Below, in pieces: positions 1 to 42,759 of a DNA stretch of 64,000 nucleotides (positions are counted from its first letter, which is position 1; each line of letters opens with the position of its first letter). The position numbers and the translations under genes are program-made. The notes under the pieces were generated by a model. The model did no database searches. It was not told where the DNA came from and saw only the letters and a list, made by a program, of their open reading frames with translations. This DNA is from an uncultured Candidatus Saccharibacteria bacterium (GTDB lineage: Bacteria; Patescibacteriota; Andersenbacteria; UBA10190), in contig CAYHTZ010000006.1 of NCBI GenBank assembly GCA_964359735.1, forward strand, positions 3,898 to 67,897, written 5' to 3'.

Positions 1-30
1 GTATTCCGCCCGGCGGCCTGGATAACACGC

Positions 31-375
31 ATGCTTACTCCCGGCGTGGTCATAATTTTCGCCGTGGCGGCGGTGGGGCTCGTGGTAGGCGGGTACATTG
101 TGTGGCAGGTGCAATCCTTTTTTCGCCTGCCTCGACTGACTTTAGTTGAACCAGCCGGCGTAATTGTGGCCACCGATGAGCTTACGGTACGAGGGTTGGC
201 AGAGGCCGGGGCGCAGGTAACAGTGAACGGGCAAGCGGTACTTCTCTCTGAAGGTGGCCAGTTTGAAATGAAGCTGATTCTCCACCCGGGAGTGAATGTG
301 CTCCGGCTTGAAGCGCAGAACGCGGCGGAGCGAAAGCGTGTCTTGGAGAAGCACTTGCTTTTGCCGCGCAGTTAA
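31..375 (+). CDS. hypothetical membrane-anchored protein (N-terminal TM helix) upstream of recA
   Basis: ORF with hydrophobic N-terminus MLTPGVVIIFAVAAVGLVVGGYIVW; no recognisable motif. Confidence 0.45.
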   Translation: MLTPGVVIIFAVAAVGLVVGGYIVWQVQSFFRLPRLTLVEPAGVIVATDELTVRGLAEAGAQVTVNGQAVLLSEGGQFEMKLILHPGVNVLRLEAQNAAERKRVLEKHLLLPRS

Positions 376-5519: not shown

Positions 5520-5971
5520 ATTAGGTGTCCTCCTCAAGGTTTAGGGTAGTCAAATACCAGATGGAATTTCATCGATTCAAAGGTTGGGATGGAAGCGTTA
5601 CTATCCCTACTCTTAGGTTCATATCCCACTTTTTCGGTTAGTTTGCATAATGTGTTAGATGGTAACGGAATGTGGATAACAACTTCAACTTCCTTTCTAT
5701 TCTACCTAACAAATACCCCGACCGTCAGCTCGGGGAAGTTTATGGGAAGCCATTTAACAGCAGTACGGGCTACTACTGGAATGTAATACTGTAGTAGGAA
5801 GGTGTTTTTGCGGGAATGCCCTTGTTGGGTATAAAGAATCTTTGCAGGATTACTTGCGTGATTATTGCGCGATTCTAGTTAAGTGGCTATATAGGTCGGC
5901 TACAAGTGATTATGTATACGGGACCCAAACGCCAAGCAGGTAGCGCAAAGTAGGATATTTCTTGGGAAGGC

Positions 5972-8605
5972 TTACAACCCGGTCACAGCTTTAATCTTAT
6001 GCCTGGTTTTGGGACCGACGTATCCTAGGGCTGGCTGAACGTTGTGTTTTTTCTGAAAGGTGGTTACGGCATTCTTGGTCGACAGATCAAAGAGAGTGGT
6101 CAAGGAGCGTTCGCTGTAGCTACCTTCATAGATCAGGAATTGCTGCAAGGCGGCTACTTCCGCACCGCTGTCGCCATACTGCAAATCTTTTTCAAACAAT
6201 AACAAATCTTCCGGTACCTCCAGACGAACAAGCGACTCCGAGACCACATTGAGTTTAGCGCGCGTTGCCTGATCAGTTATGCCGGTTTGCGGTAGATTAT
6301 GTTTGGCTTGAAAGCGTTTCAGAGCAGTTTCCGTTAATGCCCCAAAGTAGCCGGTAATTGATTTTTCCGGATACAAGTCTTCGTCGGCGGCCAAGACCTC
6401 TTGCAAATGCTCGACTTCAATATCTTGATGACCCCGTCGCAAATCTTCAACAAAGTGTTCTTTCGCTACCCGTGGAATAATAAGCGGAACTTTACTCAGC
6501 TTGATCTGATTGCGTCCTTTAACCGCGCTTAACGAAACATTAATCCCTTTGGAGTACTGTCCGGCGCGATTATACGAGTAGAGTGTATAGTACGCCGTTT
6601 TGCCGTTGGTGACCGCGGTGTCGGTAAAGCTCTGACTGCGGCCCTGATAGACCACTTTGCCATCAGAGGGTGAGCTCGCATAGCCGCCAGCCTTTTTGAC
6701 GATCACCGTTCGCACAAAAGCACTGCTGGGAGAGTTTTGCCACGTTAAGGTAATTTGTTTATCTTCGCCAGAACCATTCAGAACAAACGGTGCATTGGTC
6801 GTTGATCCAGCCGAGTCTTCAGCTTCAGGTTCGTTGGCGCCGCTGCTGTCAGTTGTCTGGCCACTTGGTTCAAATGCAGGAGTGGCGTTAGTCACATTCG
6901 AGAGCGATGACCACGTTGTCTCTGCGTATTTTGATTTGAGCGCGAAATAGTAACGGGTGCCAGGCGTAAGACCAGCGACGATATATCTGCGCTGCGCTCC
7001 GTTTGGTTGTACATCGCCGTAGAGGACAGGTGTAGATTGGGCGCGATGAGCCTGGCTAAAATTAGCTTCAGTAATTGGCTCCTGACTATATCGAATGGTG
7101 TATTCCGCGGCGGTATCAGCATCAGCGTTCGCCACCTGCCAACTTAGCGTGGCCGAGGTTTGATCGTGCGTATTAACAGCTACATTTGTAATGGTATGGG
7201 GAGGCTGAAGGATGCTTACTCCTTCTTTTGAAGTATCAGCAGTGGTTGTAAAGGTGGAGTCGCTCGATTCGGTGATATTCCCCACTTCATCGACGGAGCG
7301 TACTCGGTAGTGATAGGTGGTGTCGGGTGTAAGATGAGCGAGGTGGACGCTATGAGCAGTAGTCCGCGTGGCCGAAGCAGCGCTGACTTGTCCGTAGGCA
7401 GTGCTCAGGCCGTACTCCACTTGTGAAGTAGCACCTTTATCTGTATGCCAAGTAACGGTAGTGGTTGAGCTTTCCACGGCCGAGGCGCTGACGGCAGAGA
7501 TGGTGGCCGGAGCAATGATAGTGGTCGGTTCAGCTAAGGTAGTAAACTCTTCATTGGCCGAGACGGTGGCAACCGTGCCGCCGAGCGGCTTTGACTTCAC
7601 ACGGAAGTAATAGCCGGTATTCGAAGCAAGATCAGTTACTGTCACCGAGTGAGTCGTCGTCAATTCTGAATGTAAGGGCGAAGTCTGGCCAAAGAACGCA
7701 TTATCGCCGTATTCAACTTGGGAGTCCGAGGGTACATTCGTATGCCAGGTGATTGTCACGCTGGAAGTGTCGATAGAGGCTGCTTCAATGAAGGAAAAAA
7801 CAACTGTTGAAGGACCGGTACTCTCCGGCACAATTTCACCAGTAGTAAAGGTATTGTCTGGGGTGACAGCCAAATTACCCGCTTCGTCGCTTGATGCGAT
7901 GCGATAGTGATACAGGGTATTGAGGGAAAGATTCGACAGAGTAATGGCGTGAGTTACTGCCAAGTTTGCATCAAACGGCGAGACTGCGCCATAGCTAGCT
8001 GTGGTACCGTACTCAACTTCGCCATTCGCCACCTCGGTAGTTGTCCAGTTAATGGTAGCCGAAGAAGTCGTAAGAGAAGTGATGGTAACTGTTTCAATGG
8101 TGGGTGGGTTAGCATCAACTGCGGTCGGGACTGTGTCAGTAGTAAATGAGTGGCCGCAGGACTGACTCGCATTGCCCGTAATATCCGTAGCATGAATGCA
8201 GTAGTAATACGTGCTGCCAGCGGTGAGGTTCAGAATCGTGGCTGTGTGAACGAGCAGAGCCCCGGTGCCAAGGGTAACGCTATGGCCATAAGTAGTGGTG
8301 GACCCATACTCCAAGCGGGAAGTGGCCACCTCATCGGTGGACCAGACAATAGTGGCTTCAATGGGTAACAAGGAGGCTTCAGCCACGTTAGAGATGACGG
8401 GTGGGGTGGTGTCGCCAGGCGCTATAATCGGGGCGACTGTTTCAGTGACAGGTGGTGTGGTTGGTACAGATGTTGCCTCCGGAGTCGTGACAGGGGTAAT
8501 TTCTGGAGTGGGCAGCGGCGGGTTAAGTTCAACTTGCGCGTACGCTGGAAAGATATTCAGGCTTAGCAGAGTTATGACCAGCAGGGGCGCAAAGGATTTT
8601 TTCAT
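5972..8605 (-). CDS. secreted cell-surface protein with 4-5 fibronectin type III-like repeats and two C-terminal peptidoglycan-binding (PG_binding_1-like) domains
   Basis: Signal peptide MKKSFAPLLVITLLSLNIFPAYA; repeated about 90-aa units (INWTT.EVANGEVEYG...YHYR); C-terminal LQ.FL repeats typical of PG-binding domains. Confidence 0.8.
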   Translation of the reverse strand: MKKSFAPLLVITLLSLNIFPAYAQVELNPPLPTPEITPVTTPEATSVPTTPPVTETVAPIIAPGDTTPPVISNVAEASLLPIEATIVWSTDEVATSRLEYGSTTTYGHSVTLGTGALLVHTATILNLTAGSTYYYCIHATDITGNASQSCGHSFTTDTVPTAVDANPPTIETVTITSLTTSSATINWTTTEVANGEVEYGTTASYGAVSPFDANLAVTHAITLSNLSLNTLYHYRIASSDEAGNLAVTPDNTFTTGEIVPESTGPSTVVFSFIEAASIDTSSVTITWHTNVPSDSQVEYGDNAFFGQTSPLHSELTTTHSVTVTDLASNTGYYFRVKSKPLGGTVATVSANEEFTTLAEPTTIIAPATISAVSASAVESSTTTVTWHTDKGATSQVEYGLSTAYGQVSAASATRTTAHSVHLAHLTPDTTYHYRVRSVDEVGNITESSDSTFTTTADTSKEGVSILQPPHTITNVAVNTHDQTSATLSWQVANADADTAAEYTIRYSQEPITEANFSQAHRAQSTPVLYGDVQPNGAQRRYIVAGLTPGTRYYFALKSKYAETTWSSLSNVTNATPAFEPSGQTTDSSGANEPEAEDSAGSTTNAPFVLNGSGEDKQITLTWQNSPSSAFVRTVIVKKAGGYASSPSDGKVVYQGRSQSFTDTAVTNGKTAYYTLYSYNRAGQYSKGINVSLSAVKGRNQIKLSKVPLIIPRVAKEHFVEDLRRGHQDIEVEHLQEVLAADEDLYPEKSITGYFGALTETALKRFQAKHNLPQTGITDQATRAKLNVVSESLVRLEVPEDLLLFEKDLQYGDSGAEVAALQQFLIYEGSYSERSLTTLFDLSTKNAVTTFQKKHNVQPALGYVGPKTRHKIKAVTGL

Positions 8606-16941: not shown

Positions 16942-16971
16942 ACACTCCCATATTTTGAAATATGGGAGTGT
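16942..16971. promoter_or_regulatory. 30-bp perfect palindrome ACACTCCCATATTT-TG-AAATATGGGAGTGT between convergent genes (operator candidate or bidirectional terminator)
   Basis: Near-identical half-site to the palindrome at 17460-17487 upstream of the same TrpR-like gene. Confidence 0.5.
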
Positions 16972-16977
16972 AAAAGT

Positions 16978-17433
16978 TTAGAGATCGCCTAGGAGTAGGC
17001 GGAAGAGAAGCATGCGGCTGTCGCCTCGCAGTGACCGTTGTAATTCCGGCGGAAAGTCATCAACTAGACTGCGCTGTCGGGCCCGGGCTGCGCGCTTTTT
17101 TCTACGGCTTCTAGCTTTTGCTAATCGTTTTTGACCTTCGCGAATTAATTGATACTCGTAGGCAGCATCAGTGAGCCAACGATCAACCCCGCCTATGGTG
17201 GAAGTTCCTGCACCCAATTTCCGCTGAATTTGCTCGTAGGTAAGACCGCTCACTAACATTTCTGCCACTTCCCAACGGCGCATGAGCATGACTACTTCAC
17301 TTTCAGTCAATAAGCGGTTCAAAAAGAATCGCACCTGTTCTTTCTTTTTAAGTGAGGCGATGATCTCTGCCAGGCGATCGAGAAATGCGCGTCGCTTTTC
17401 TGGTGCCAGTTTTCGGTAGTTATACCTTGCCAT
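16978..17433 (-). CDS. TrpR-family (YerC/YecD-like) DNA-binding protein with basic C-terminal extension
   Basis: LLTESEVVMLMRRWEVAEMLVSGLTYEQIQRKLGAGTSTIGGVDRWL matches the Trp repressor-like HTH; start at MARYNY with AAGGA SD. Confidence 0.7.
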   Translation of the reverse strand: MARYNYRKLAPEKRRAFLDRLAEIIASLKKKEQVRFFLNRLLTESEVVMLMRRWEVAEMLVSGLTYEQIQRKLGAGTSTIGGVDRWLTDAAYEYQLIREGQKRLAKARSRRKKRAARARQRSLVDDFPPELQRSLRGDSRMLLFRLLLGDL

Positions 17434-17459
17434 GTCCTTAATACCTTCAATTATTATTT

Positions 17460-17487
17460 TACTCCTATATTTCAAAATATAGGAGTA
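17460..17487. promoter_or_regulatory. 28-bp palindrome TACTCCTATATTT-CA-AAATATAGGAGTA centred about 40 bp upstream of the TrpR-like start; candidate autoregulatory operator overlapping the promoter
   Basis: Shares half-site TACTCC(C/T)ATATTT with the 16942-16971 palindrome; followed (minus strand) by TAAAAT and the SD. Confidence 0.5.
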
Positions 17488-17660
17488 AAATAAGTGTGTA
17501 TATCTTTTAGCCGGGGCTCTATAAGCCGGCGGCAATGAGCTGATCGCGGAGAGATGTGATTTCGAGAATGGCGGTTTGGGCTAGGTTGCCGGCGGCGATT
17601 TGCTTTTCAAGCTCGCTCTGGAAACTTTTAAAGTCTGCCTGCATTCCCAGGCTTGTGTCA

Positions 17661-26986: not shown

Positions 26987-27544
26987 ATGGCGAAAAGCGT
27001 TCTGGGGGAACTCGGGAATAAGATGAAGGTGGCTTTAGTGGGGACCGTGAAAGGAGCGGATGAGCTGTACGACACGCTCTTCGAAGCGGTGCGCGGGAAC
27101 GTAGTGGCATTCCTTACCGGCACGGGGGATGTAGCGAAGGCGGGCATGGGCGGCGTGAAGGATATTGTGGTGGGAGCGATCCATGCGGTAGCGGAGATCG
27201 GGGTAGCGGCAGGAGATGCAGTTCATGACATTGTGCACGCGGCGGTAAAGGGCGTGGCGGAATCGGGAGGAGATGTAGGGAGCGCAGTGAAGCATTCCGT
27301 GCGCGGTGCTATTCAAGGGGTGAGTGATGTGGAAGGCGACGTGGTAGATGCGTCGGTGAAAGCGGTGAGCGGGGCAATTAAGGGTGTGCGGGAAGTCGGG
27401 GGAGATGTAGGGAGAGCCACAACGGATGCTGTTACGGGAGCGGTGGAAGCGGCCGGTGAAGTATCGCAGACAACGGTGCATGAAGTGAAAAAGACGTTGG
27501 CGGATTCTGTGGAAGGCGCCAAGGACGTGATTCATAAACTCTAG
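26987..27544 (+). CDS. hypothetical repeat protein (four about 22-aa repeats GAI.GV.EVGGDVG...)
   Basis: Internal periodicity in the translation. Confidence 0.5.
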   Translation: MAKSVLGELGNKMKVALVGTVKGADELYDTLFEAVRGNVVAFLTGTGDVAKAGMGGVKDIVVGAIHAVAEIGVAAGDAVHDIVHAAVKGVAESGGDVGSAVKHSVRGAIQGVSDVEGDVVDASVKAVSGAIKGVREVGGDVGRATTDAVTGAVEAAGEVSQTTVHEVKKTLADSVEGAKDVIHKL

Positions 27545-27577
27545 CGAGTTTGATGAAGACTTATACACTAGGGGATT

Positions 27578-28219
27578 GTGGGAAACGTACGCATGGCCCT
27601 GAAAATCAATGAGCGGTTTGGAAAATTAGCAGATGAGGAGACGTTGACGCGAACGGTTGCCGCATTCAGGAAAAATGGGATAATGGCAGAGATTGTAAAG
27701 AATGGGCTGGACGCCAAGGCCAGATTGTTTGAGCTTTTGCCGGAGGGGGCGGAAGTGATGAACATGACGTCCATGACGTTGGAAACAATCGGAGTAGTCA
27801 AAGAAGTGTTGGAAAGCGGGCGATATCGGGCGGTGCGCAATGAATTTAAAAAACTCGACCCGGAAAAAGATGCCGTAGTGAAACAGCGGCTAGGCGCGGC
27901 TCCGGAGTGGGCGATCGGCAGCGTGCATGCAGTGACGGAAGCCGGGCAAGTGCTGGTAGCGTCGAACACCGGCAGTCAGTTGGGGGCGTACGCGTACGGT
28001 GCTTTTCACGTCATTTGGGTAGTGGGCGCGCAGAAAGTGGTCAAGGATTTAGACGAAGGCTTTAAACGCATTGAAGAATATACTCTTCCCTTGGAAGATG
28101 CGCGGGCGCAGAAAGCGTATGGTACGGGCAGTAATATTAGTAAAATGTTGACTGTAAATAAGGAAGTGGCCCCGGAAAGAATTCACATGATTTTGGTTCA
28201 AGAGAAATTAGGATTCTAA
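27578..28219 (+). CDS. LUD-domain protein (LutC/YkgG family)
   Basis: Similarity pattern to lactate-utilisation protein C / DUF162. Confidence 0.65.
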   Translation: MGNVRMALKINERFGKLADEETLTRTVAAFRKNGIMAEIVKNGLDAKARLFELLPEGAEVMNMTSMTLETIGVVKEVLESGRYRAVRNEFKKLDPEKDAVVKQRLGAAPEWAIGSVHAVTEAGQVLVASNTGSQLGAYAYGAFHVIWVVGAQKVVKDLDEGFKRIEEYTLPLEDARAQKAYGTGSNISKMLTVNKEVAPERIHMILVQEKLGF

Positions 28220-28302
28220 ATACCCTCCACAAGAGGTGGAAAAGTTTTCTTGAAGGTGGGGGAAGTAACTGGCATTTTGAAGTTCATAAGGAGGTGATTC
28301 GT

Positions 28303-28995
28303 ATGAAGAAAACATGGATTGTGAGTTTTCTTTCGCTCTTCACGGTGATGGTGGTGACGCTGGCACTCAGCGTGAACTTTGTGGGAGCTGAAAGCGGCAG
28401 TAATGGGGATTTGGGTAATGGTGACGGCAACAGTGGGCCGGATCATGATAATGACGGCAAGAGTGATGCTACCGACCCAGATGATGATAACGACGGAATC
28501 GTAGACAAGAAAGAGAGCAGCAGCGGCAAACTGGACCATGATAACGACGGCATCAAAGATGCCAGTGACCCGGATGACGACAACGATGGCATTGCCGATA
28601 CGGAAGACACGATGCTGCTGGATGCTGACAACGATGGCATTCGCGATGATAAGGACAATGATGACGATGATGACGGTGTCAGCGATGCTAAAGAAAGTAA
28701 GCCAAAGGACCACGATAACGACGGCATCGTGGACCGGTTAGACCCAGATGATGATGAGGATGGTATTCCTGATTACATCGAGCGGGGCAATTACCTGCCT
28801 GACCACGACAACGACGGGATCAAGGACAAGAAAGACCCGGACGATGACGCCGATGGCATCTTGGACACAGCTGATGCCAAACTGTGGGACCAAGATAACG
28901 ACGGCATTGTAGACAAACTGGATACCGATGATGATGGCGACGGCACACCAGACGCCAACGACATCACGAAGATAAGCCGATCAGGGAAGGGGTGA
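28303..28995 (+). CDS. secreted calcium-binding protein with tandem thrombospondin type-3 (TSP3) repeats
   Basis: Signal peptide; more than 10 D.D.DG..D motifs (DHDNDGI.D..DPDDDNDGI.D); the same full SD as the gene at 15168. Confidence 0.8.
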   Translation: MKKTWIVSFLSLFTVMVVTLALSVNFVGAESGSNGDLGNGDGNSGPDHDNDGKSDATDPDDDNDGIVDKKESSSGKLDHDNDGIKDASDPDDDNDGIADTEDTMLLDADNDGIRDDKDNDDDDDGVSDAKESKPKDHDNDGIVDRLDPDDDEDGIPDYIERGNYLPDHDNDGIKDKKDPDDDADGILDTADAKLWDQDNDGIVDKLDTDDDGDGTPDANDITKISRSGKG

Positions 28996-29026
28996 CGAAA
29001 CGCCAGAGTTTGTATACTCTGGCGTC

Positions 29027-29803
29027 ATGGCAGATAATTGGCGCAAAAAGTATCTTTTTGACCCGAAAGGGGAGCGGCCGTTTCGCTTGAGCCGGTCTAA
29101 AGTGGATTTATTTCGGGAATGCCCGCGCTGCTTTTATTTTGACCGCAGGCTGGGGGTATCCCGGCCCAGCATGCCGGCGTTTTCGCTGAACAATGCGGTG
29201 GATATTTTAATGAAGAAAGAATTCGATATTCACCGCGCTAAGCAAGCAGCTCACCCTTTGATGGAGACATATGGTATTCATGCAGTGCCATTTGACCATG
29301 AAGATATGAATAGGTGGCGGGATGCCTTGCGCGGCGGGGTTACCTATGATGTACCGGGGACGAATTTTACCATCACGGGAGGGTTGGATGATATCTGGGT
29401 GGATGAAGAAGGAAAGTTAATCGTGGTGGATTACAAGGCGACGGCTACTGATAAAGAAATTTCTTTGGATGATAAGTGGAAGCAAAACTATAAGCGGCAA
29501 GTGGAGTTGTACCAGTGGCTCTTGAGGAAAAATGATTTTACCGTTTCCGACACGGCGTACTTCGTGTTCTGCAACGGCACCACCGACCGGGAAGCATTCG
29601 ATGGGAAACTTGAGTTCGACGTGCAGATCTTGCCGTACGAGGGTAGTGATGATTGGGTAGAAGGTACTGTTAAGAAAGCACACGCGTGCTTGATGAATAA
29701 TAAAGCTCCGGAATCCGGCGCCGAATGCGAATACTGTATGTATCGCGAAGCCTGGCAGACAGCGGAATCTCGTGTAGTGGGACAGGCTCTTGACAGCGGA
29801 TGA
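29027..29803 (+). CDS. Cas4/RecB-like PD-(D/E)xK nuclease with a probable Fe-S cluster
   Basis: VVDYKAT plus QVELYQW nuclease motifs; N-terminal CPRC plus C-terminal C.ACLM..ECEYC cysteines in the Cas4/AddB arrangement. Confidence 0.7.
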   Translation: MADNWRKKYLFDPKGERPFRLSRSKVDLFRECPRCFYFDRRLGVSRPSMPAFSLNNAVDILMKKEFDIHRAKQAAHPLMETYGIHAVPFDHEDMNRWRDALRGGVTYDVPGTNFTITGGLDDIWVDEEGKLIVVDYKATATDKEISLDDKWKQNYKRQVELYQWLLRKNDFTVSDTAYFVFCNGTTDREAFDGKLEFDVQILPYEGSDDWVEGTVKKAHACLMNNKAPESGAECEYCMYREAWQTAESRVVGQALDSG

Positions 29804-29826
29804 GTCCTTGTATAAGATCTTATGTC

Positions 29827-30864
29827 ATGCAAAGGATCATTTCCAGCATTTTCGCTGTTCTGGTAATGGCGTTGGCGGCGCCGACCGCCAGCGCTAATGG
29901 GGCAGACGGCGCTCTACGCATTCCTGCCGGCCAAGATCATTTTCGCGTCAGCGATGCCGGATTTGACCTTCAGCTGCCGCCCGATTTCTTCGGGCCCGGT
30001 TCAGAACCGTTTGACGGTACAATCATCTGCGGGGGACAAGAAGACTTTGGCACGGACACCATCATCGAGCGCAAGTCGGACATAATTCTGCCTCCGCCGC
30101 CTTCTTCTGATACTATTCCGATTGAGATCATAGAATTGCAGCTCGTAAGCTGCCAGCCGATTGTCGTCAATCACAATGACGGAAGCCAAGAGCAGTGGAA
30201 CGTTCAGATTGATCTTTCACCGATCATACCCCCGCCGGGGCAGATGACAATTGAGCGGATAGATAAAAATGGCGGAACCTTTGACGCCCAACTGCCTGTC
30301 CAGCCGCGCTTTATATTTATACAGGTTGGAGGTGAGGAAATCACGGAGCCGGGTACGATTGTGGGCGACAATCCGCTTGAGCATGGTTCGGATTCCATTG
30401 TTGAACAACAGCCCATCATCTGGGAGTCCGAGTTCAACTCTTTTGTTTTTAACGCTCAATCTGTCCCGTGGTCTTTGTGTTTGACGCCATCAGTTTTTTG
30501 TCCCGGTCCAATTGCTTTGGCCAGCGCTGACGGTTGGATGAATCTTGTTTTGCCTGTTTTTCCGGGCGATCCGGACGAGAAAGCGTGTGAGTTTCCCCTG
30601 CCCAACGGCGGGCTGGTGGTGCTCCCAACCCCCCACAACCCGAATCCAAGCTCTGATAAAGCGCAAAGCCCTGACCAATTGCGGCGCGCCGCCGACCGTC
30701 TGGAAGCCAAGGGATTTACAGCGGAGGCTGACCGTTTGCGCCTCATAGCGGAAGCGATAGAGACAATTCAGCAAACATGCAAAGGGTTGAACGATATACC
30801 GCCATTTGACGAAAATCATGCACCACCCGATCTGCCTCCTCTGGGACGAGGTCGCTCAAGATAA
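29827..30864 (+). CDS. secreted hypothetical protein
   Basis: Signal peptide MQRIISSIFAVLVMALAAPTASA. Confidence 0.5.
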   Translation: MQRIISSIFAVLVMALAAPTASANGADGALRIPAGQDHFRVSDAGFDLQLPPDFFGPGSEPFDGTIICGGQEDFGTDTIIERKSDIILPPPPSSDTIPIEIIELQLVSCQPIVVNHNDGSQEQWNVQIDLSPIIPPPGQMTIERIDKNGGTFDAQLPVQPRFIFIQVGGEEITEPGTIVGDNPLEHGSDSIVEQQPIIWESEFNSFVFNAQSVPWSLCLTPSVFCPGPIALASADGWMNLVLPVFPGDPDEKACEFPLPNGGLVVLPTPHNPNPSSDKAQSPDQLRRAADRLEAKGFTAEADRLRLIAEAIETIQQTCKGLNDIPPFDENHAPPDLPPLGRGRSR

Positions 30865-30865
30865 T

Positions 30866-30888
30866 GCAATTCCACCTACGAGGTGGAA
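30866..30888 (+). terminator. hairpin AATTCCACCT-ACG-AGGTGGAATT after the stop codon
   Basis: 10-bp perfect stem; weak T tract. Confidence 0.35.
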
Positions 30889-30968
30889 TTCTCGGCACCG
30901 GAATCTGGGGCGGAGAGTGTGAATACTGCGCTTATCGCGAGGCCTGGCAGGAGGCGGAAGCTCGATGA
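30880..30968 (+). pseudogene. 3'-terminal fragment of a paralogous Cas4-like nuclease gene
   Basis: ...GECEYCAYREAWQEAEAR* is about 80% identical at DNA level to 29690-29790 (ECEYCMYREAWQTAESR). Confidence 0.45.
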
Positions 30969-31083
30969 TTAGCGAGCGTACAGCTGTTGCCACTGGATGG
31001 CGCCGAGAAGCGCGGGTGGGGATTCCTTTTCTTCGCGCTCCACGCGGTTGACCCAATATGTCTGCTCGCCTGGGGGTAGGGGC

Positions 31084-32151
31084 CTATGGCTGCGGGGATT
31101 GATATTGATAGCTCTCAGGTGCAGGGGGTTGCGAGTCGTAAGGCTGATAGTTTTGGTACTGTGTGGAGTCGCTGGGGTATTGATATTGGGACGAATCAGG
31201 TGGCGGTGAGGATTGGTATTGCTGGTAGTGCTCGCTCTCTTCTTGGAAACGTCGGTAGTCGTCTGATTGCTGAAAACCAGGGCAGCGGTCGGGATTGTCT
31301 TGACAGTAGCGCTTACATTCCTCCTCGCTGTTGCAGGTGTATGATTCCTCCTGGTGAATATTAAGGTGGTAGGCGCCGGAGTTATCACTGTATTGCTGAC
31401 ACTGCGCAGGATTGGCTTCGCAGTAGGCGCGGCAGGTGGTGAAGGAATTGCAGGGAAGTTTGTCGCCTAGTTTTTGCGCAAACTCCTCGCGGCGCTGCTT
31501 GAATTCTTCTGGCGCATGCTTTTCGGCGAACTGCATACAGCGATCAATGTTTTGGGGGCTGTTACAGAAATTTTGGCAGCTCTCAAAGGAATCGCAGCCG
31601 AGTGCCTCGCGGGCGCGCTCAAGCATTTCGTCCTTGCGCTGGTGGTATTCAGCCGGAGCATGCACTTCCGCAAATTCCATACACCGTGATTGGTTCGCGG
31701 GATTTTCACAGAAGGCTTGGCACTCCTGCATGGAGCTGCAGCCGAGTTCCGCTTTGGCGCGTTCAAGCATGTTGGACTGCTGCCCAGCTTCGCCGAGGCC
31801 GCGCTGCTGTGCAAATGCCAGACAGGCCTGATGGTTAGCAGGTAGCTCACAGTAGGCGCGACATTCGTCAACCGAGCCGCAGTTGCCCAGCTCGGCGATG
31901 GGGAATGTGATGCCGTGCTTTTGGGCCAGTTCTTGATCGCTTTGGGAAGCTCTTACTTGTCCATGCAAAATGTATTTCTCGTACGACCAGCAGGCAGCTT
32001 TGTTCGCGGGAATTTCGCAGAAGAGGCGGCATTCTTTGGCATCGCGGCAGCTTCCCAGTTCAACGATAGGAAATGTAGTTGCTGCCTTCGCTGCGGCGCC
32101 CAAGGCGAGCAAGCTACAGGTTAGAAAAAGGATTTTGGTACGGTTGATCAT
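31084..32151 (-). CDS. secreted Cys-rich repeat protein (about 6 repeats LG.C.S..EC..FCE.PAN...C..FA) with Q/Y-rich tail
   Basis: Signal peptide MINRTKILFLTCSLLALGAAAKA; repeat periodicity. Confidence 0.65.
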   Translation of the reverse strand: MINRTKILFLTCSLLALGAAAKAATTFPIVELGSCRDAKECRLFCEIPANKAACWSYEKYILHGQVRASQSDQELAQKHGITFPIAELGNCGSVDECRAYCELPANHQACLAFAQQRGLGEAGQQSNMLERAKAELGCSSMQECQAFCENPANQSRCMEFAEVHAPAEYHQRKDEMLERAREALGCDSFESCQNFCNSPQNIDRCMQFAEKHAPEEFKQRREEFAQKLGDKLPCNSFTTCRAYCEANPAQCQQYSDNSGAYHLNIHQEESYTCNSEEECKRYCQDNPDRCPGFQQSDDYRRFQEESEHYQQYQSSPPPDSSQYQYPSDSTQYQNYQPYDSQPPAPESYQYQSPQP

Positions 32152-32499: not shown

Positions 32500-33201
32500 A
32501 TGTACTTCCGTCAGTTTGTTCATGAAGAAAAGAGCTGTCTTTCATACTTGATTGGCTGCCAAGCCTGCCGTGCGGCGATGGTGGTTGACCCGCAGATGGA
32601 AATAGAGCCGTACCTAAGAGAAGCCAGGCGCGAGGGGATGCAGATCACGCACGTGATTGATACGCACACACACGCGGATCACCTTTCGGGTGCCTCGGCA
32701 TTAGCGCGGGAGGTAGGAGTGCCGGTAGCTCAACTCAAGGATGGGGAAGTGTTCCAAGTGGGTAACCGGGTGGTGAAGGTAATAGCCACGCCGGGGCACA
32801 CTGATGACTCATTATGTTTGTATATTGATGATTGGTATGTCTTGACGGGCGATACATTATTTGTGAGCGATGTGGGGCGGGTGGATTTGGCTCTCGAAGA
32901 TACGGGCGAGGAAGAGATGCGCCGCGCTGCAGAGCGATTGTATGATTCAATTCAAAGGCTGCTTTTGTTACCCGATTGGACGGAAGTCTACCCGGGGCAT
33001 TTCGGCGGGTCGGCCTGTGGCAAGGGAATATCAGGCAAGATGATTTCGACAATTGGGCGTGAGAAACGCAGGAACAAGGCGCTTGCGCTTTCGCGTGAAG
33101 AGTTCGTCAGTTACGTTTTGACTGATACACCTTCGCCGCCCGAAGATTTTCGTGAGATTAAGCAGCGGAATATAGCCGCAGCGCAGTTGCCTGTGGTATA
33201 A
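32500..33201 (+). CDS. MBL-fold metallo-hydrolase
   Basis: HTHADH motif; canonical start MYFRQF. Confidence 0.8.
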   Translation: MYFRQFVHEEKSCLSYLIGCQACRAAMVVDPQMEIEPYLREARREGMQITHVIDTHTHADHLSGASALAREVGVPVAQLKDGEVFQVGNRVVKVIATPGHTDDSLCLYIDDWYVLTGDTLFVSDVGRVDLALEDTGEEEMRRAAERLYDSIQRLLLLPDWTEVYPGHFGGSACGKGISGKMISTIGREKRRNKALALSREEFVSYVLTDTPSPPEDFREIKQRNIAAAQLPVV

Positions 33202-33210
33202 AGATTACGA

Positions 33211-33762
33211 ATGCATCTTACGGTTGCAGAAAAGGGTTTTTGGGTTATTTCGGTTATTGCCATCCTGGGCGCAGGGTTGGCAGGCCTGCGCGTGAGATTG
33301 GAAAAAGAAAATGACCCGTGTTATGGGGGGCAGTATGGCACGACCTATGAGGAGTGCGTGGGGTGTATCGGGAATGAGAATTATTGTTCCTCCGTGTTTG
33401 GGGCACCGGGGGAGGAGATAGAGGAAGAAAAGCCGACCGCGACCCCGATTCCCGATGTCTACTGCAACAACTACGCTAACGACTACCAGACGTGTTTGGA
33501 TTGTATTAATCAAGCATACTGCGACCAGATCTTTCGGGGTCGCGCGCCAGCGGCTACTCCTTTGCCCAAGACCGCAACACCTACCCCGACATCGAAACCC
33601 AAAGCAACCCAGAAACCGCAGTCATCATCGCCAGCCGTGACAGCTACCCCCACCCCGACCCCGCCCCCCCCCCCCACCCGCCACGGCAACCAGTACACGC
33701 AAAACTACCAAACGTGCCTGGCGTGTATCAACCAGGCTTTTTGCGATCAACTTTTTGACTAG
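33211..33762 (+). CDS. membrane-anchored Cys-rich protein with repeated YQTCL.CINQA.CDQ.F motif
   Basis: TM segment; three repeats; contains a C12 homopolymer. Confidence 0.55.
   Translation: MHLTVAEKGFWVISVIAILGAGLAGLRVRLEKENDPCYGGQYGTTYEECVGCIGNENYCSSVFGAPGEEIEEEKPTATPIPDVYCNNYANDYQTCLDCINQAYCDQIFRGRAPAATPLPKTATPTPTSKPKATQKPQSSSPAVTATPTPTPPPPPTRHGNQYTQNYQTCLACINQAFCDQLFD
33664..33675. repeat. C12 homopolymer tract inside a CDS (encodes PPPP)
   Basis: ccgcccccccccccccaccc. Confidence 0.6.
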
Positions 33763-33765
33763 CCT

Positions 33766-35490
33766 ATGGACACACCTGAACCTGGGGAAACATCTTGGCT
33801 TCACACACTTTTCACTCAACATCGATCTAAAATTCTGATTGGTGCCGGCGGTATTCTGGTGCTTGCTCTTATTATTGTCTTGGCAACTCGTTTTTGGCCG
33901 GGCGAATTGTCAGATGAAGATATAGCTCGGGTTGAAGAGACATGCAGGGGGCCAAAGCAGCAGGCGCTGAGTGAATTAGAACAACAGGTGGCGTTGACCG
34001 CGACCGATGGAGAAGCGTTTGTGCGAGGTTTAGAGCAGCTGCCCTGGCTGGTGGCGATTCTCTCGCAGCGATCGACGGCCTATGAAGACGCTCAAGCCAC
34101 ACCGCCCAGCACACTGGCGGCGAACGCCAAAGCAGATGCCTTGAAGCGGCTGGATCTTTCGCTCGAACTTGTGCGGTGCTACGAAGGGCAGCTGAACCGG
34201 TTTCCGAAAGCTCGTGAAGCGGTAGCATCTGCCGTAGTTGATCTGCAAGCCGAGCGAGAGAACGTTGCGGCTGCCGATTTTGCGCAATTCTTCGCCACGG
34301 GGGAGCCGGCGGAAAGCGTCATTGAACTTGCACCGCGAGAGCAGCGGCGCCTTCGGCTGCGGACATTGTGCATTGATCGCTTTGCCCCACCCCCCGAAGC
34401 CGGCACGCGCTACATTTTGGGTGGCACGGTGGATGAGACCAAGCGGCGTTCGTTGTGTGATTTGTTACGGTCGGCGCAAGGCGGCGGCAGCCTGGCGTCT
34501 GCCCAAAATGCTATTTGGAAACTGGAGCAGGAGCATATGGATCTGTCGACTCCTCCCGTGGAAGCGGCCGCTGGCGCCACCGGCATGGTTTCCGCCCAGC
34601 GGGAGGGAAGCTTGCATGTGAGCGCGAAGGCGACCGGGGCTCTGACGGCTCTGGATGTTACGTTGACGAATGCTACGGATGCGCCGCTGTCTATTGACAC
34701 GTCCTGCGCGTACTTTGTACCGCTCTCAATTCCTGACCTTACCCAACCCCTTCCCACCGCCCCGCCCGATTGGTCTGACCCGGCCACGTTAGAAAAGTTT
34801 ACGGAGGACAGTAATCGACAATTGTTACAAACCTTAGATGAGCAGGAGAAAACTTTTGAGAAGCTTGGCATGCCGTTTCCGCCCCAGTTAAAGACGCAGC
34901 AAGAAGAGTTGCGGAAAAAACTTGGGGAGGCTGGCACAGGGGAAGTGAAGGGTATTTACAGCCGTGTGTACCTGCCTGGCAACCCCGATGCGGATCCGGA
35001 CAGTCTCGATCCCTTCCAAGTGGTGCAAACCGGCCTAGGCCGCCAGCCCTTGGGAGTGGTGGGCGCACTGCGGGGCGGCCCGCCTCCCGGGCGGCGGGAA
35101 ATTGATCGTATCAAGGATGCCTTGGAACGCATGGCAGAAGCGCCGGAGCGCGCCCGCGAGAATCTTGATAGAGCGCTGGATGACTATGCGCGCGACCCCT
35201 CCCGCCAACATACGGAAGATGTGCTTGACGCTCTCGAGCGTTGCTTTGTGAATGCGTGTGTGCCAAGTTCTGAAATGATACGTCTTTGGGAGCAAATTCG
35301 CACCCGGTCTGACCAAATGGTTGACCAGGCTATCAATCGAGTCATCGCATCCGTGACTGAACAAACGTTGCTTGACGCGGTAGACGCCATCCGCTTTTGC
35401 CAAGCGGTTGGCTGCAATGTTGAGAATGACGTCCGGCAGCTCGACACGCACTTGCGCAACCTGCTCCGCAATCAAGTCCGAGATAGATAG
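33766..35490 (+). CDS. large membrane-anchored hypothetical protein
   Basis: N-terminal TM segment; 3-nt gap from the upstream gene. Confidence 0.5.
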   Translation: MDTPEPGETSWLHTLFTQHRSKILIGAGGILVLALIIVLATRFWPGELSDEDIARVEETCRGPKQQALSELEQQVALTATDGEAFVRGLEQLPWLVAILSQRSTAYEDAQATPPSTLAANAKADALKRLDLSLELVRCYEGQLNRFPKAREAVASAVVDLQAERENVAAADFAQFFATGEPAESVIELAPREQRRLRLRTLCIDRFAPPPEAGTRYILGGTVDETKRRSLCDLLRSAQGGGSLASAQNAIWKLEQEHMDLSTPPVEAAAGATGMVSAQREGSLHVSAKATGALTALDVTLTNATDAPLSIDTSCAYFVPLSIPDLTQPLPTAPPDWSDPATLEKFTEDSNRQLLQTLDEQEKTFEKLGMPFPPQLKTQQEELRKKLGEAGTGEVKGIYSRVYLPGNPDADPDSLDPFQVVQTGLGRQPLGVVGALRGGPPPGRREIDRIKDALERMAEAPERARENLDRALDDYARDPSRQHTEDVLDALERCFVNACVPSSEMIRLWEQIRTRSDQMVDQAINRVIASVTEQTLLDAVDAIRFCQAVGCNVENDVRQLDTHLRNLLRNQVRDR

Positions 35491-35545
35491 TAACCCATAC
35501 GGCTGCAGATTCCACACCCCGTGTGGAATCGGTCTCATTTTTGTA
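35491..35545 (+). terminator. repeat-terminator copy 1: AACCCATACGGCTGCAGATTCCACAC-CCC-GTGTGGAATC then TTTTT
   Basis: 10-bp stem; near-identical copy at 36725-36770 with a complementary loop (GGG). Confidence 0.55.
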
Positions 35546-35569: not shown

Positions 35570-36706
35570 GTGCTCAATCGGAGTGGCTTTTCTATTCTCG
35601 TAGGTGTCGTTATTGCGGCGTTTCTGGTCTTCGTGAGCGTTATGGGAGTCTACGTACTGCGCATGGGCCCGAATGTCGAGTCGCCGAAGCTGTACGCGAA
35701 GGAAATTCAGCGCGATACCCCCATCGTTCTTACCGGTGACGAGCGCATGGAGATTGTCGATACAAGGTTCACTCAGAAAAACGACATTACGCTGTCTGGC
35801 AATGCAACACTCGTCATCCAAGATTCGTATTTCGAGCATCTCCAAGAGTACTCTTCTCAGTTCACCCTTTGGGCTCGAGAGAATGCTCGGGTGGTCGTCA
35901 AGGATAGCGAAGTAAGGGTTAGTCCGTGGCTTAACTGGAACTTTACGGACTCCGCTTCGCTGGCCTTGGAAAACGTCGAATCGATAGATTCCAATGTTTG
36001 GCATAGTTTCCAAAGCAATGCGCGGGCCGTCGTCCGCTCATCTGCGTTCCACGGCACCATAGCCGATAACGTTAGCTTGGCAGTATCCGACTCGCCAAGC
36101 ACATTTATCGAAATGGTGTACCCGATCGGCGCCACCGTAGACGAGGAGCTGCCGAAGCGCATCACGAATTTTACCTTTCCGAACTCCGGCGAAAACAACG
36201 TGAGTTTCAGATTATCAATCCAAAACTCTCAAGCCCTAGCCTGGGGCATCACGACAGGGCCAGGCAACAAGATAACGATTAGAAACGCCAAGCCACTCGT
36301 CGTCACGTACGCGATCAAGTACCCTTGGCGGGATGTGACAGCTGAGTTTTTGGACCTTGGGGATAAACACTACGACGACCAAACGTGGATAGTCGAGGAT
36401 TCCTGGCTTCGGCTGGTGAATGTCCAAACGTGGCCTTGGAGCCCCATCGTAGGCGACGGCAACACCCTCATTGTTAAGAATTCCACTCTGGCCGACAACC
36501 AGTTCAGCTGGGGCAACTCAAAGATAATTATAGAAGAAAGTACCACTTCCTTAATCAGGGCCAAAGATTCTGTCGATATAACGCTGAGAAATTCAACGGT
36601 GAAAGGTGATTTGGTAGCGCAAGATTCGGGCAGAATTACGTTGGTGAATACTCGGGTGACGGGCAAGAAAATCATCGAGGACAACGGGGAAATCATCGTG
36701 CAGTAG
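35570..36706 (+). CDS. membrane-anchored hypothetical protein, possibly right-handed beta-helix (repetitive N.S/T-rich)
   Basis: Lower GC than its neighbours; flanked by two copies of the same terminator repeat. Confidence 0.5.
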   Translation: MLNRSGFSILVGVVIAAFLVFVSVMGVYVLRMGPNVESPKLYAKEIQRDTPIVLTGDERMEIVDTRFTQKNDITLSGNATLVIQDSYFEHLQEYSSQFTLWARENARVVVKDSEVRVSPWLNWNFTDSASLALENVESIDSNVWHSFQSNARAVVRSSAFHGTIADNVSLAVSDSPSTFIEMVYPIGATVDEELPKRITNFTFPNSGENNVSFRLSIQNSQALAWGITTGPGNKITIRNAKPLVVTYAIKYPWRDVTAEFLDLGDKHYDDQTWIVEDSWLRLVNVQTWPWSPIVGDGNTLIVKNSTLADNQFSWGNSKIIIEESTTSLIRAKDSVDITLRNSTVKGDLVAQDSGRITLVNTRVTGKKIIEDNGEIIVQ

Positions 36707-36724
36707 GCGCACTACTCCATGGCA

Positions 36725-36770
36725 ACCCATAGGGCTGCAGATTCCACACGGGGTGTGGAATCTTTGTCTG
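36725..36770 (+). terminator. repeat-terminator copy 2: AACCCATAGGGCTGCAGATTCCACAC-GGG-GTGTGGAATC
   Basis: Between convergent genes. Confidence 0.5.
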
Positions 36771-38895: not shown

Positions 38896-38918
38896 GATTC
38901 CGCTCCAGGAGCGGAATT
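38896..38918. terminator. hairpin GATTCCGCTC-CAG-GAGCGGAAT between convergent genes
   Basis: Same GATTCC...GGAATC outer stem as the 35491/36725 repeats. Confidence 0.35.
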
Positions 38919-42123: not shown

Positions 42124-42759
42124 TTAGAGCAGATGGAAAGAGTCTAGAATTTGCTGGAAGACTTCGCGGCCTTGGGGGTATGTGTCAGGGTTGTACACAA
42201 AAGAGAAGGTGTAGGTAACGCCTTCATGGTGGATCATGGCATCGACCTGCTGGCCGAGCATGGTGCTGGGGTCGTTCTGGGCTCGGAATGAACCGGGAAT
42301 GCTATCAATAATAATCGGTCGGCTGGCGATGCCGGGACGGCTCATCACTTCATTGGGGTCACCGGGGCCGGCGTGCAAGCCGAATGACGCGCCGCGTTCG
42401 TAGTACTGGGGAACAAAGGGGCCATCGGTGTTTTCGTCAGCGCGAACAGAAAAATCAGGGCTTTGGGCACTGATGTAAGATAGTCTCACGCCTTTCTTGC
42501 CTTCACTGGCTGTAACTTTCCAGCCCGTGGGAAGAGTGATGCTATAAAGATTTGATTTGTCAGTGATGAGTTCCCCTTCGAGGGTTGGCAGGGGTGTTGG
42601 CGCTGGGGCGAGCCCCGTTTCAGAGGGACTGGCAGTTCCGCTCGCAGGAGCGGAACTTGTCTGAAACGGGGTAGGGCTTCTTAAGACAGCGTACCAGATT
42701 GCGGCCGCAAGGATGGCGAGGATAATAGCTGGACCAATCAGTAAAGGAAGACGTCGCAT
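42124..42759 (-). CDS. membrane-anchored hypothetical protein
   Basis: TM segment then linker TPFQTSSAPASGTASPSETG shared with the 14081 gene. Confidence 0.5.
   Translation of the reverse strand: MRRLPLLIGPAIILAILAAAIWYAVLRSPTPFQTSSAPASGTASPSETGLAPAPTPLPTLEGELITDKSNLYSITLPTGWKVTASEGKKGVRLSYISAQSPDFSVRADENTDGPFVPQYYERGASFGLHAGPGDPNEVMSRPGIASRPIIIDSIPGSFRAQNDPSTMLGQQVDAMIHHEGVTYTFSFVYNPDTYPQGREVFQQILDSFHLL
42613..42671. repeat. 59-bp nested palindromic cassette inside the CDS (outer arms CCCCGTTTCAGA/TCTGAAACGGGG, inner GTTCCGCTCGCAGGAGCGGAAC)
   Basis: Related to 14664-14729. Confidence 0.45.

Follow-up and report, generated by a model that had tools for sequence, protein, structure and literature searches.

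An orphaned 3' end of a solo Cas4-like nuclease gene in a Patescibacteria genome: a possible scar of recombination between two haplotypes of one locus

How can the end of a gene come to lie a second time, orphaned, on the far side of its neighbour? The question is raised by a 64,000-nt stretch of contig CAYHTZ010000006.1 from an uncultured groundwater member of the Patescibacteria (called the window below, at its full length), in which a solo Cas4-like nuclease gene is followed by a gene for a secreted protein and then, in the same orientation as the nuclease and downstream of this adjoining gene, by a remnant of about 72 nt that repeats the nuclease 3' end. The intervening gene, with its own promoter and a hairpin after its stop codon, forms a unit that we call the cassette. 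An earlier interpretation of these letters (the sequence-only reading) had proposed either that the cassette was inserted into the nuclease with duplication of its target, or that a tandem paralogue of the nuclease had decayed. We compare the window with the loci of relatives, labelled L001, L002, L003, L004, L005, L006, L087, L088, L091, L092 and L093, and favour, with a probability of roughly 0.5, a third account: the remnant would be the scar of a recent recombination that joined two haplotypes of the locus and left a displaced 3' end of a nuclease allele behind.

The repeat itself is real. A repeat finder aligns 29717-29772 with 30909-30964 without gaps at 77% identity, and a single 2-nt gap extends the match to 29705-29772 against 30895-30964, where 53 of 70 positions are identical (76%). 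The E value of this match is 2e-9 in a local search and 2e-8 against both strands of the whole window; its local alignment score of 34 compares with 7.9 +/- 1.4, and a maximum of 17, in 2000 shuffles, and tblastn finds 15 of 19 residues identical (E 1.4e-5). The homology claimed in the sequence-only reading is thus borne out and lies far above chance, while its extent has to be trimmed: what was described as a remnant at 30880-30968 of about 80% identity starts at 30895, and 30880-30894 comprises the hairpin's 3' arm and 4 further nt. The remnant carries a +2 insertion, a GG within 30907-30910 in a run of G, that puts APESG and GECEYCAYREAWQEAEAR into different frames, and it keeps a stop codon of its own (TGA, 30966-30968). 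The window contains no second full copy of the nuclease gene.

The differences between the remnant and functional nuclease genes bear on its origin. We aligned 57 nt by codon between the remnant, the functional copy in the window and five orthologues (L001, L002, L003, L005 and L092). The remnant differs from its own gene at 14 of these positions, from L001, L003, L092 and L005 at 12-14 and from L002 at 21, and it is the closest sequence to each functional orthologue compared. It has no private base state at all, against 2-7 in each functional gene and 4 in the functional copy of the window. Its differences from the orthologues fall mostly at third codon positions (3, 0 and 9 over the three positions for L001), and all invariant residues are retained. 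The junction between nuclease and cassette, for its part, is old, because it is colinear in L001 and the two loci share only 80% nucleotide identity (87% at the amino-acid level). With a third-position Jukes-Cantor distance of 0.62 between the window and L001, a neutral remnant as old as their split would be expected to carry about 10 private changes in 57 nt, the probability of none being below 1e-4; at a quarter of that age it is 0.046. Because the remnant has no private states, because its differences are biased to third positions and because the junction is old, the remnant is young and stayed under selection as coding sequence until a short time ago. Rather than a copy produced on the arrival of the cassette, it represents the terminus of another functional allele.

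This result bears on a target-site duplication, in which the 1.1-kb cassette was truly inserted into the nuclease 3' end and about 70 bp of target were duplicated by staggered breaks or replicative template switching. Direct repeats do flank the unit exactly, from promoter to hairpin, a 120-bp repeat flanks it in L005, and the unit stands at other sites in L004, L005 and L091. However, the two copies already differ at a quarter of the aligned positions (14/57), all private change lies on the copy under selection and none on the unselected one, and a duplicate as old as a junction held in common with the 80%-identical L001 should have decayed. Neither terminal inverted repeats nor a transposase accompany the unit, and we know of no transposition that gives duplications of 70-120 bp and of variable length. 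A target-site duplication is strongly disfavoured as the source of the remnant; we reject it on the asymmetry of change (0 private changes on the untranslated copy, 4 on the selected one) together with the age of the junction, and regard this half of the sequence-only reading as improbable and not supported.

The other half is harder to separate from the account that we favour. If a second nuclease gene had once stood downstream of the secreted-protein gene in the same genome and been deleted except for its last 72 nt, a young, allele-like remnant with synonymous-biased differences would be explained equally well, and some metagenome-assembled genomes of Patescibacteria do have two copies of the gene on separate contigs (L020/L046 and L068/L074). 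Yet a single copy of the gene is the usual state, none of 80 GTDB nuclease loci and none of the close relatives shows another C-terminal motif within 5 kb, and the remnant is orthologue-like (as in its match to the L005 gene end, below) rather than a divergent paralogue. We consider a decayed tandem copy unlikely, with the proviso that it overlaps the recombination account if by paralogue one means a transient merodiploid after DNA uptake. Of the two earlier suggestions this one comes closer, in that the remnant is what is left, since a recent event, of the end of another functional allele or copy, of a type that is intact in L005. The same survey of 80 loci leads us to reject the remnant as a general feature of the nuclease family.

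Scanning metagenome DNA for the C-terminal motif returned only L090, from the same strain, and the unrelated L089. L090 is an independent ENA assembly from Hainich groundwater (3471 bp, about 3x coverage) that matches 27456-30926 with 7 mismatches and reproduces the junction of gene, hairpin and remnant. It bears on the thought that the arrangement is an assembly chimera of two co-occurring strains. The sequences come from metagenomes that hold many related strains, and L090 is thinly covered and ends inside the remnant; but two assemblies that differ at 7 sites share the junction, and, with copies only 76% identical, the joint lacks a long common k-mer by which an assembler might be misled, so that we rate a chimera as very improbable.

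The remnant lies within a 34-aa open reading frame (ORF) at 30864-30968, MQFHLRGGILGTGIWGGECEYCAYREAWQEAEAR, whose ATG overlaps the stop codon of the secreted-protein gene (TAATG) and which ends at TGA 30968. We have little belief in a functional micro-gene translationally coupled to the secreted-protein gene. The ORF and the overlap of stop and start can be read in the sequence, and constraint on such a gene could account for the lack of private substitutions, but the perfect 10-bp hairpin spans its codons 2-9, a G>T variant at 30915 in L090 (GAG to TAG) puts a stop into its frame, it is absent from L087, and its product would be a lone CxxC tail with no obvious fold. The predicted folding of the remnant region is not better than that of shuffled sequences (z = -1.8), and no known RNA or tRNA integration target is apparent, with no Rfam match and no tRNA in the window.

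Where, then, would a second allele come from? The nuclease of L005 belongs to the same 90% cluster as that of L001. It ends in GCCTGGCAGGAGGCGGAAGCT, identical at 21 of 21 nt to positions 30944-30964 of the remnant, and runs directly into GTGGTATAAAGATTAC, which is the last codons, the stop and the downstream spacer of the window gene for a metallo-beta-lactamase (MBL) fold protein (33190-33210); further on stand homologues of two window genes, those at 33211 and 33766. Because the L005 nuclease end is identical to the remnant over these 21 nt and fused to MBL codons, we infer a cassette-less haplotype in which a nuclease with the remnant-type end stood beside the Cys-rich and MBL genes. L005 would be a deletion derivative of this haplotype, whose order would have been nuclease with remnant-type end, Cys-rich gene, MBL gene and the gene at 33211. 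In L005, at 2170-2200, the final three codons of the nuclease ORF are those that close the MBL gene.

The favoured recombination account can then be laid out as a sequence of steps, in which the parental haplotypes, the direction of transfer and the mechanism are all reconstructed. One haplotype would have carried the nuclease followed by the promoter and the secreted-protein gene, as in L001, and the other a nuclease ending in ...WQEAEA directly beside the genes for the Cys-rich and MBL proteins, the haplotype that L005 would descend from. A first, homologous crossover would have fallen in or upstream of the nuclease gene, and a second, illegitimate one immediately behind the cassette hairpin and 72 nt short of the resident stop. 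The nuclease end that came in with the cassette would thereby have become the expressed gene together with it, and the resident end would have stayed behind untranslated and then gained its +2 frameshift, leaving the nuclease itself unaffected. The spacer beyond the remnant would go back to the cassette-less haplotype, as the intergenic region that it had originally. The GC content is uniform across the unit and the region, which fits exchange among close relatives; the RecA encoded in the window and the lack of an integrase or transposase there also agree with this account. The simplest history with this pattern is homology-facilitated illegitimate recombination.

That mechanism is said to have been treated by Prudhomme in 2002, by de Vries and Wackernagel in 2002 and by Meier and Wackernagel in 2003. 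Orphan 3' gene ends in the effector loci of Rhs, contact-dependent inhibition and type VI secretion systems have been attributed to it (PMC5361080). The likeness to those loci is that the upstream gene keeps a working end brought in with a new downstream gene, that the former 3' end comes to lie further downstream without a change of orientation, that no integrase is present and that homology provides an anchor on one side only. The present case differs from them in that the gene is a housekeeping-type nuclease rather than a polymorphic toxin, that the displaced piece is 23 codons without a domain, and that there is neither an immunity-gene logic nor an array of successive orphans. Prophages and islands, too, integrate into gene 3' ends and bring a replacement end with them (phage 21 and e14 in E. 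coli icd, and islands in tRNA genes), which resembles our locus in having a 3' end on both sides of an insert, diverged copies and an intact gene; here, in contrast, there is no integrase and no exact att core, and the insert is a single 1.1-kb gene.

Orphaned gene ends and fused tails turn up repeatedly around this locus, and such further scars, an MBL orphan in L087 and the 120-bp flanking repeat of L005 (see below), speak for the recombination account. In L087 a 33-nt spacer takes the place of hairpin, remnant and intergenic spacer between the cassette and the Cys-rich gene. The same locus (positions 1-95, reverse strand, compared with window 33170-33210) has an orphan of about 30 nt from the 3' end of the MBL-fold gene, encoding AAAQLSVV and the stop, between an unrelated 252-aa gene and a homologue of the 33211 gene. 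The order of genes downstream of the nuclease differs in nearly every relative, and an empty site, with the nuclease directly beside the Cys-rich gene, was not found in L002, L003, L088, L092 or L093.

Several observations weigh against the recombination account. Neither parental haplotype has been recovered intact from the window lineage: the cassette-bearing one is seen in L001, and the cassette-less one is suggested solely by the deletion fusion in L005. A sliding-window identity scan of the window nuclease reveals no mosaic breakpoint, L001 being the closest sequence over the whole length. L087 may not belong to the L001 lineage, and its arrangement could be a secondary deletion. The argument from rates has a small base of 57-70 nt and six functional genes.

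Table 1. Features of the nuclease locus, in window coordinates
Feature	Position	Strand	Remarks
Solo Cas4-like PD-(D/E)xK nuclease gene, 258 aa	29027-29803	+	PF12705 match, homologues, AF2/Foldseek
Left repeat copy: nuclease codons A227-R249	29705-29772	+	includes invariant P228, C234, C237, Y239
Sigma-70-like promoter of secreted-protein gene, TTGACA-17-TAAGAT	29790-29818	+	conserved in L001, L004, L005
Secreted-protein gene, 345 aa	29827-30864	+	signal peptide ...APTASA/NG
Perfect hairpin AATTCCACCT-ACG-AGGTGGAATT	30868-30890	+	10-bp stem, 3-nt loop
Right repeat copy: orphaned last 23 codons and stop of a nuclease allele	30895-30968	+	+2 frameshift
Spacer from orphan stop to stop of convergent Cys-rich gene	30969-31083	.	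putative origin in the cassette-less haplotype
Convergent gene for Cys-rich repeat secreted protein	31084-32151	-	right-hand neighbour of the scar

What kind of unit is the cassette? Its left edge is interwoven with the nuclease: the final 10 codons and the stop of the nuclease run into the cassette promoter, with the stop TGA (29801-29803) inside the promoter spacer, and in both the window and L001 the stop that the nuclease ORF once had is gone, the frame continuing into the promoter. Upstream of the secreted-protein gene in L001, L004 and L005 the promoter is conserved in differing genomic contexts, and relatives also conserve the start of the gene, ATG 29827, 8 nt past the -10 box; the gene is probably leaderless. 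The ATGA overlap noted in the sequence-only reading does exist, in that ATG 29800 overlaps the nuclease stop, although the downstream gene probably does not start there, the conserved ATG being the better candidate. The clean hairpin after the gene is as described there and is probably the terminator of the secreted-protein gene; it is also listed as terminator-like on the minus strand, and it is located at the putative illegitimate joint. For the secreted protein itself we find no Pfam, NCBIfam or PADLOC match and only 20 homologues, with a conserved N-terminal domain; its AlphaFold2 (AF2) model is unreliable (predicted local distance difference test, pLDDT, 48) and too poor for structure searching.

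The view of a self-contained 1.1-kb gene unit between the two copies is supported by the relatives, in which a block made up of promoter, ORF and a 3' tail of about 20 nt is kept at differing sites. The block follows the nuclease in L001, adjoins YchF in L004, lies between NUDIX and membrane-protein genes in L005, comes after an M23-like gene in L091 and occurs as tandem paralogues in L006, and the side on which the hairpin element flanks the unit differs between the window and L005. The two tandem paralogues in L006 share a promoter and 5' end that are 86% identical (1-87 and 1292-1370).

We scanned 52 window ORFs for domains and found no integrase or transposase in the 64-kb window, nor are there terminal inverted repeats at the ends of the unit. 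An integron, a transposon and a prophage are accordingly rejected, no integrase, transposase or cas gene being among the 52 ORFs, and a foreign composition of the unit is rejected on its flat GC content. Integron cassettes do share with it the single-gene format bounded by a hairpin, the occurrence at different sites and the placement of the hairpin on either side according to locus. They differ in that the element here is a 23-nt perfect stem and not an attC site, that the unit has its own promoter, and that 64 kb contain no integron integrase or cassette array; the combination of attC with integrase and attI that defines an integron is not found.

A cassette could also move without an integrase. 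RecA, which is encoded in the window, might excise and re-integrate it in a Campbell-type, reversible fashion between the two repeat copies and so keep the remnant fresh. Such a cycle would leave the remnant without private substitutions, would agree with the functional L005 nuclease that has a remnant-type end and no adjacent cassette, and would, through circular permutation, place the hairpin on opposite sides of the unit, as it is in the window and L005. We nevertheless find it quite improbable, since 76% identity over 70 nt makes a poor RecA substrate, the remnant has its +2 frameshift and, in L090, a stop codon in frame, and neither circles nor empty sites are in evidence for this strain. 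A wider version is likewise a long shot: single genes with such a promoter and an ATTCCAC hairpin might be integrase-free mobile modules that move from one gene end to another and either produce or exploit extended repeats of the adjoining gene's end (here 72 bp, in L005 120 bp, and 44 bp at 35487/36719), with an insertion that may be reversible by RecA. If this were true, the remnant would be kept fresh as an alternating functional gene end.

The hairpin belongs to a family. In the window its members lie at 30868-30890, 35508-35530, 36739-36763, 38897-38917 and 42634-42657, and in relatives at 5794-5816 and 6987-7009 of L005 and at about 574-598 of L091. Their stems are perfect, of the form (A/G)ATTCCRC..loop..GYGGAAT(C/T), stand a few to about 30 nt past stop codons and have no following T-tract; several recombination joints are at these hairpins. 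TTCCAC-N-GTGGAA occurs 3 times in the window, where 0.05 are expected, and in about 700 kb of other Patescibacteria loci next to no member is seen, the family being lineage-specific. Two members, each with the preceding 21 nt, form a 44-nt direct repeat of 86% identity (35487-35530 and 36719-36762) that flanks a single secreted-protein ORF (35570-36706); the hairpin loops of these copies are complementary (CCC and GGG), as if one hairpin had been inverted. In L005 a 120-bp direct repeat of 90% identity (5794-5913 and 6987-7106) flanks the secreted-gene unit; it comprises a hairpin and the opening 97 nt of the membrane-protein gene that follows, with the ATG of the left copy changed to ACG; a degenerate hairpin of the window type lies upstream of the promoter of that unit.

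The nuclease whose end is repeated is a normal, conserved resident of a class that is already described. Its ORF, with the DYK motif and cysteine cluster recognised in the sequence-only reading, scores above the Pfam cut-off for PF12705 (PDDEXK_1; 52.9 bits against 22, E 6.5e-14) and has 7883 homologues across Patescibacteria, about 60% identical over the full length; the gene is near-universal in that group. D135-Y-K137 forms the motif, and the cysteines are C32, C35, C221, C234 and C237. In an alignment of 21 nuclease sequences C32, C35, C234, C237, D121/D122, Y136-K137, Q158 and Y162 are invariant, and the catalytic motifs D...(D/E)xK and QxxxY are invariant or nearly so. The AF2 model (pLDDT 85.7) predicts a fold that matches RecB-family nucleases, the best Foldseek matches being the AdnAB nuclease domain (Fe-S), SSO0001 Cas4, human EXO5, RecE and type I-C Cas4.

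The name Cas4 is valid for this protein at the level of the superfamily only. The assignment to PDDEXK_1 is confirmed and the superfamily fold agrees with a Cas4-like enzyme, but the Cas4 hidden Markov models remain below cut-off (TIGR00372 30.1 against 65, PF01930 13.8 against 22.7), and the PADLOC Cas4 models, which reach E 1e-8, have no curated cut-off. The cysteines are spaced CxxC (32, 35)...CxxC (234, 237), and the C-terminal pair aligns with that of SSO0001. In line with a gene that is not next to CRISPR, there is no CRISPR-like array in the 64-kb window and no cas gene among the scanned ORFs. Solo-Cas4 genes in Candidate Phyla Radiation (Patescibacteria) and DPANN genomes without CRISPR have been described before, with their function, in repair or defence, left open (Hudaiberdiev et al., 2017; PMC5704561). 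Our nuclease shares with these solo-Cas4/PF12705 proteins the RecB-type PD-(D/E)xK core, QxxxY and four cysteines that bridge the N- and C-termini, as well as being a standalone, vertically inherited, highly conserved gene in small genomes without CRISPR-Cas. It differs in the cysteine pattern, which is C...CxxCx5C in Cas4/AddB, and in falling below the Cas4 cut-offs given above; its metal cofactor and its activity are predicted. Judged by its sequence, it is presumably a metal-cluster exonuclease in DNA repair or recombination. The public NCBI annotation (P0004) is 197 aa long and starts downstream of the invariant N-terminal CxxC, and the homologues favour the 258-aa start at 29027. Upstream, a perfect 10-bp palindrome, ACGCCAGAGT-TTGTAT-ACTCTGGCGT (29000-29025), fills the gap between the stop of an Asp-rich gene and the nuclease ATG and could be a terminator or an operator.

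That Asp-rich secreted protein (28294-28995) has about 8 DxDxDG-type repeats weakly like thrombospondin type 3 (calcium-binding) repeats; its gene is present in L001 and absent between gene A and the nuclease in L092. It lies at the edge of a part of the window, from 28 to 43 kb, that looks like a hypervariable surface-protein region, with about 12 genes for secreted or membrane proteins, most without a Pfam match, in an order that differs in every relative recovered (L001, L002, L005, L087, L088 and L092). Elsewhere in the window two perfect palindromes (16942-16971 and 17454-17493, stems of 13 and 18 bp) share the core CTCC(C/T)ATATTT..AAATAT(G/A)GGAG; a Trp-repressor-like gene (16978-17535, minus strand) has the first of them just upstream of its stop and contains the second near its 5' end.

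The scar in itself is small, has no effect on the nuclease and most likely has an ordinary cause. For those who annotate such genomes it carries two cautions: a short 3' fragment of the conserved solo Cas4-like gene should not be taken as a sign that there is another nuclease, and the 197-aa call drops the N-terminal CxxC. Its wider use is as a dated marker, showing close relatives of this groundwater lineage that exchange and reshuffle modules of a single secreted- or surface-protein gene at gene ends, without recognisable mobile-element machinery, in an exchange that leaves orphaned gene ends and fused C-terminal tails. The shuffling of promoter-gene-hairpin modules among gene ends, together with the hairpin family and the long flanking repeats, is a mildly interesting wider pattern, and it bears on how the small genomes of symbiotic Patescibacteria vary their surface repertoire.

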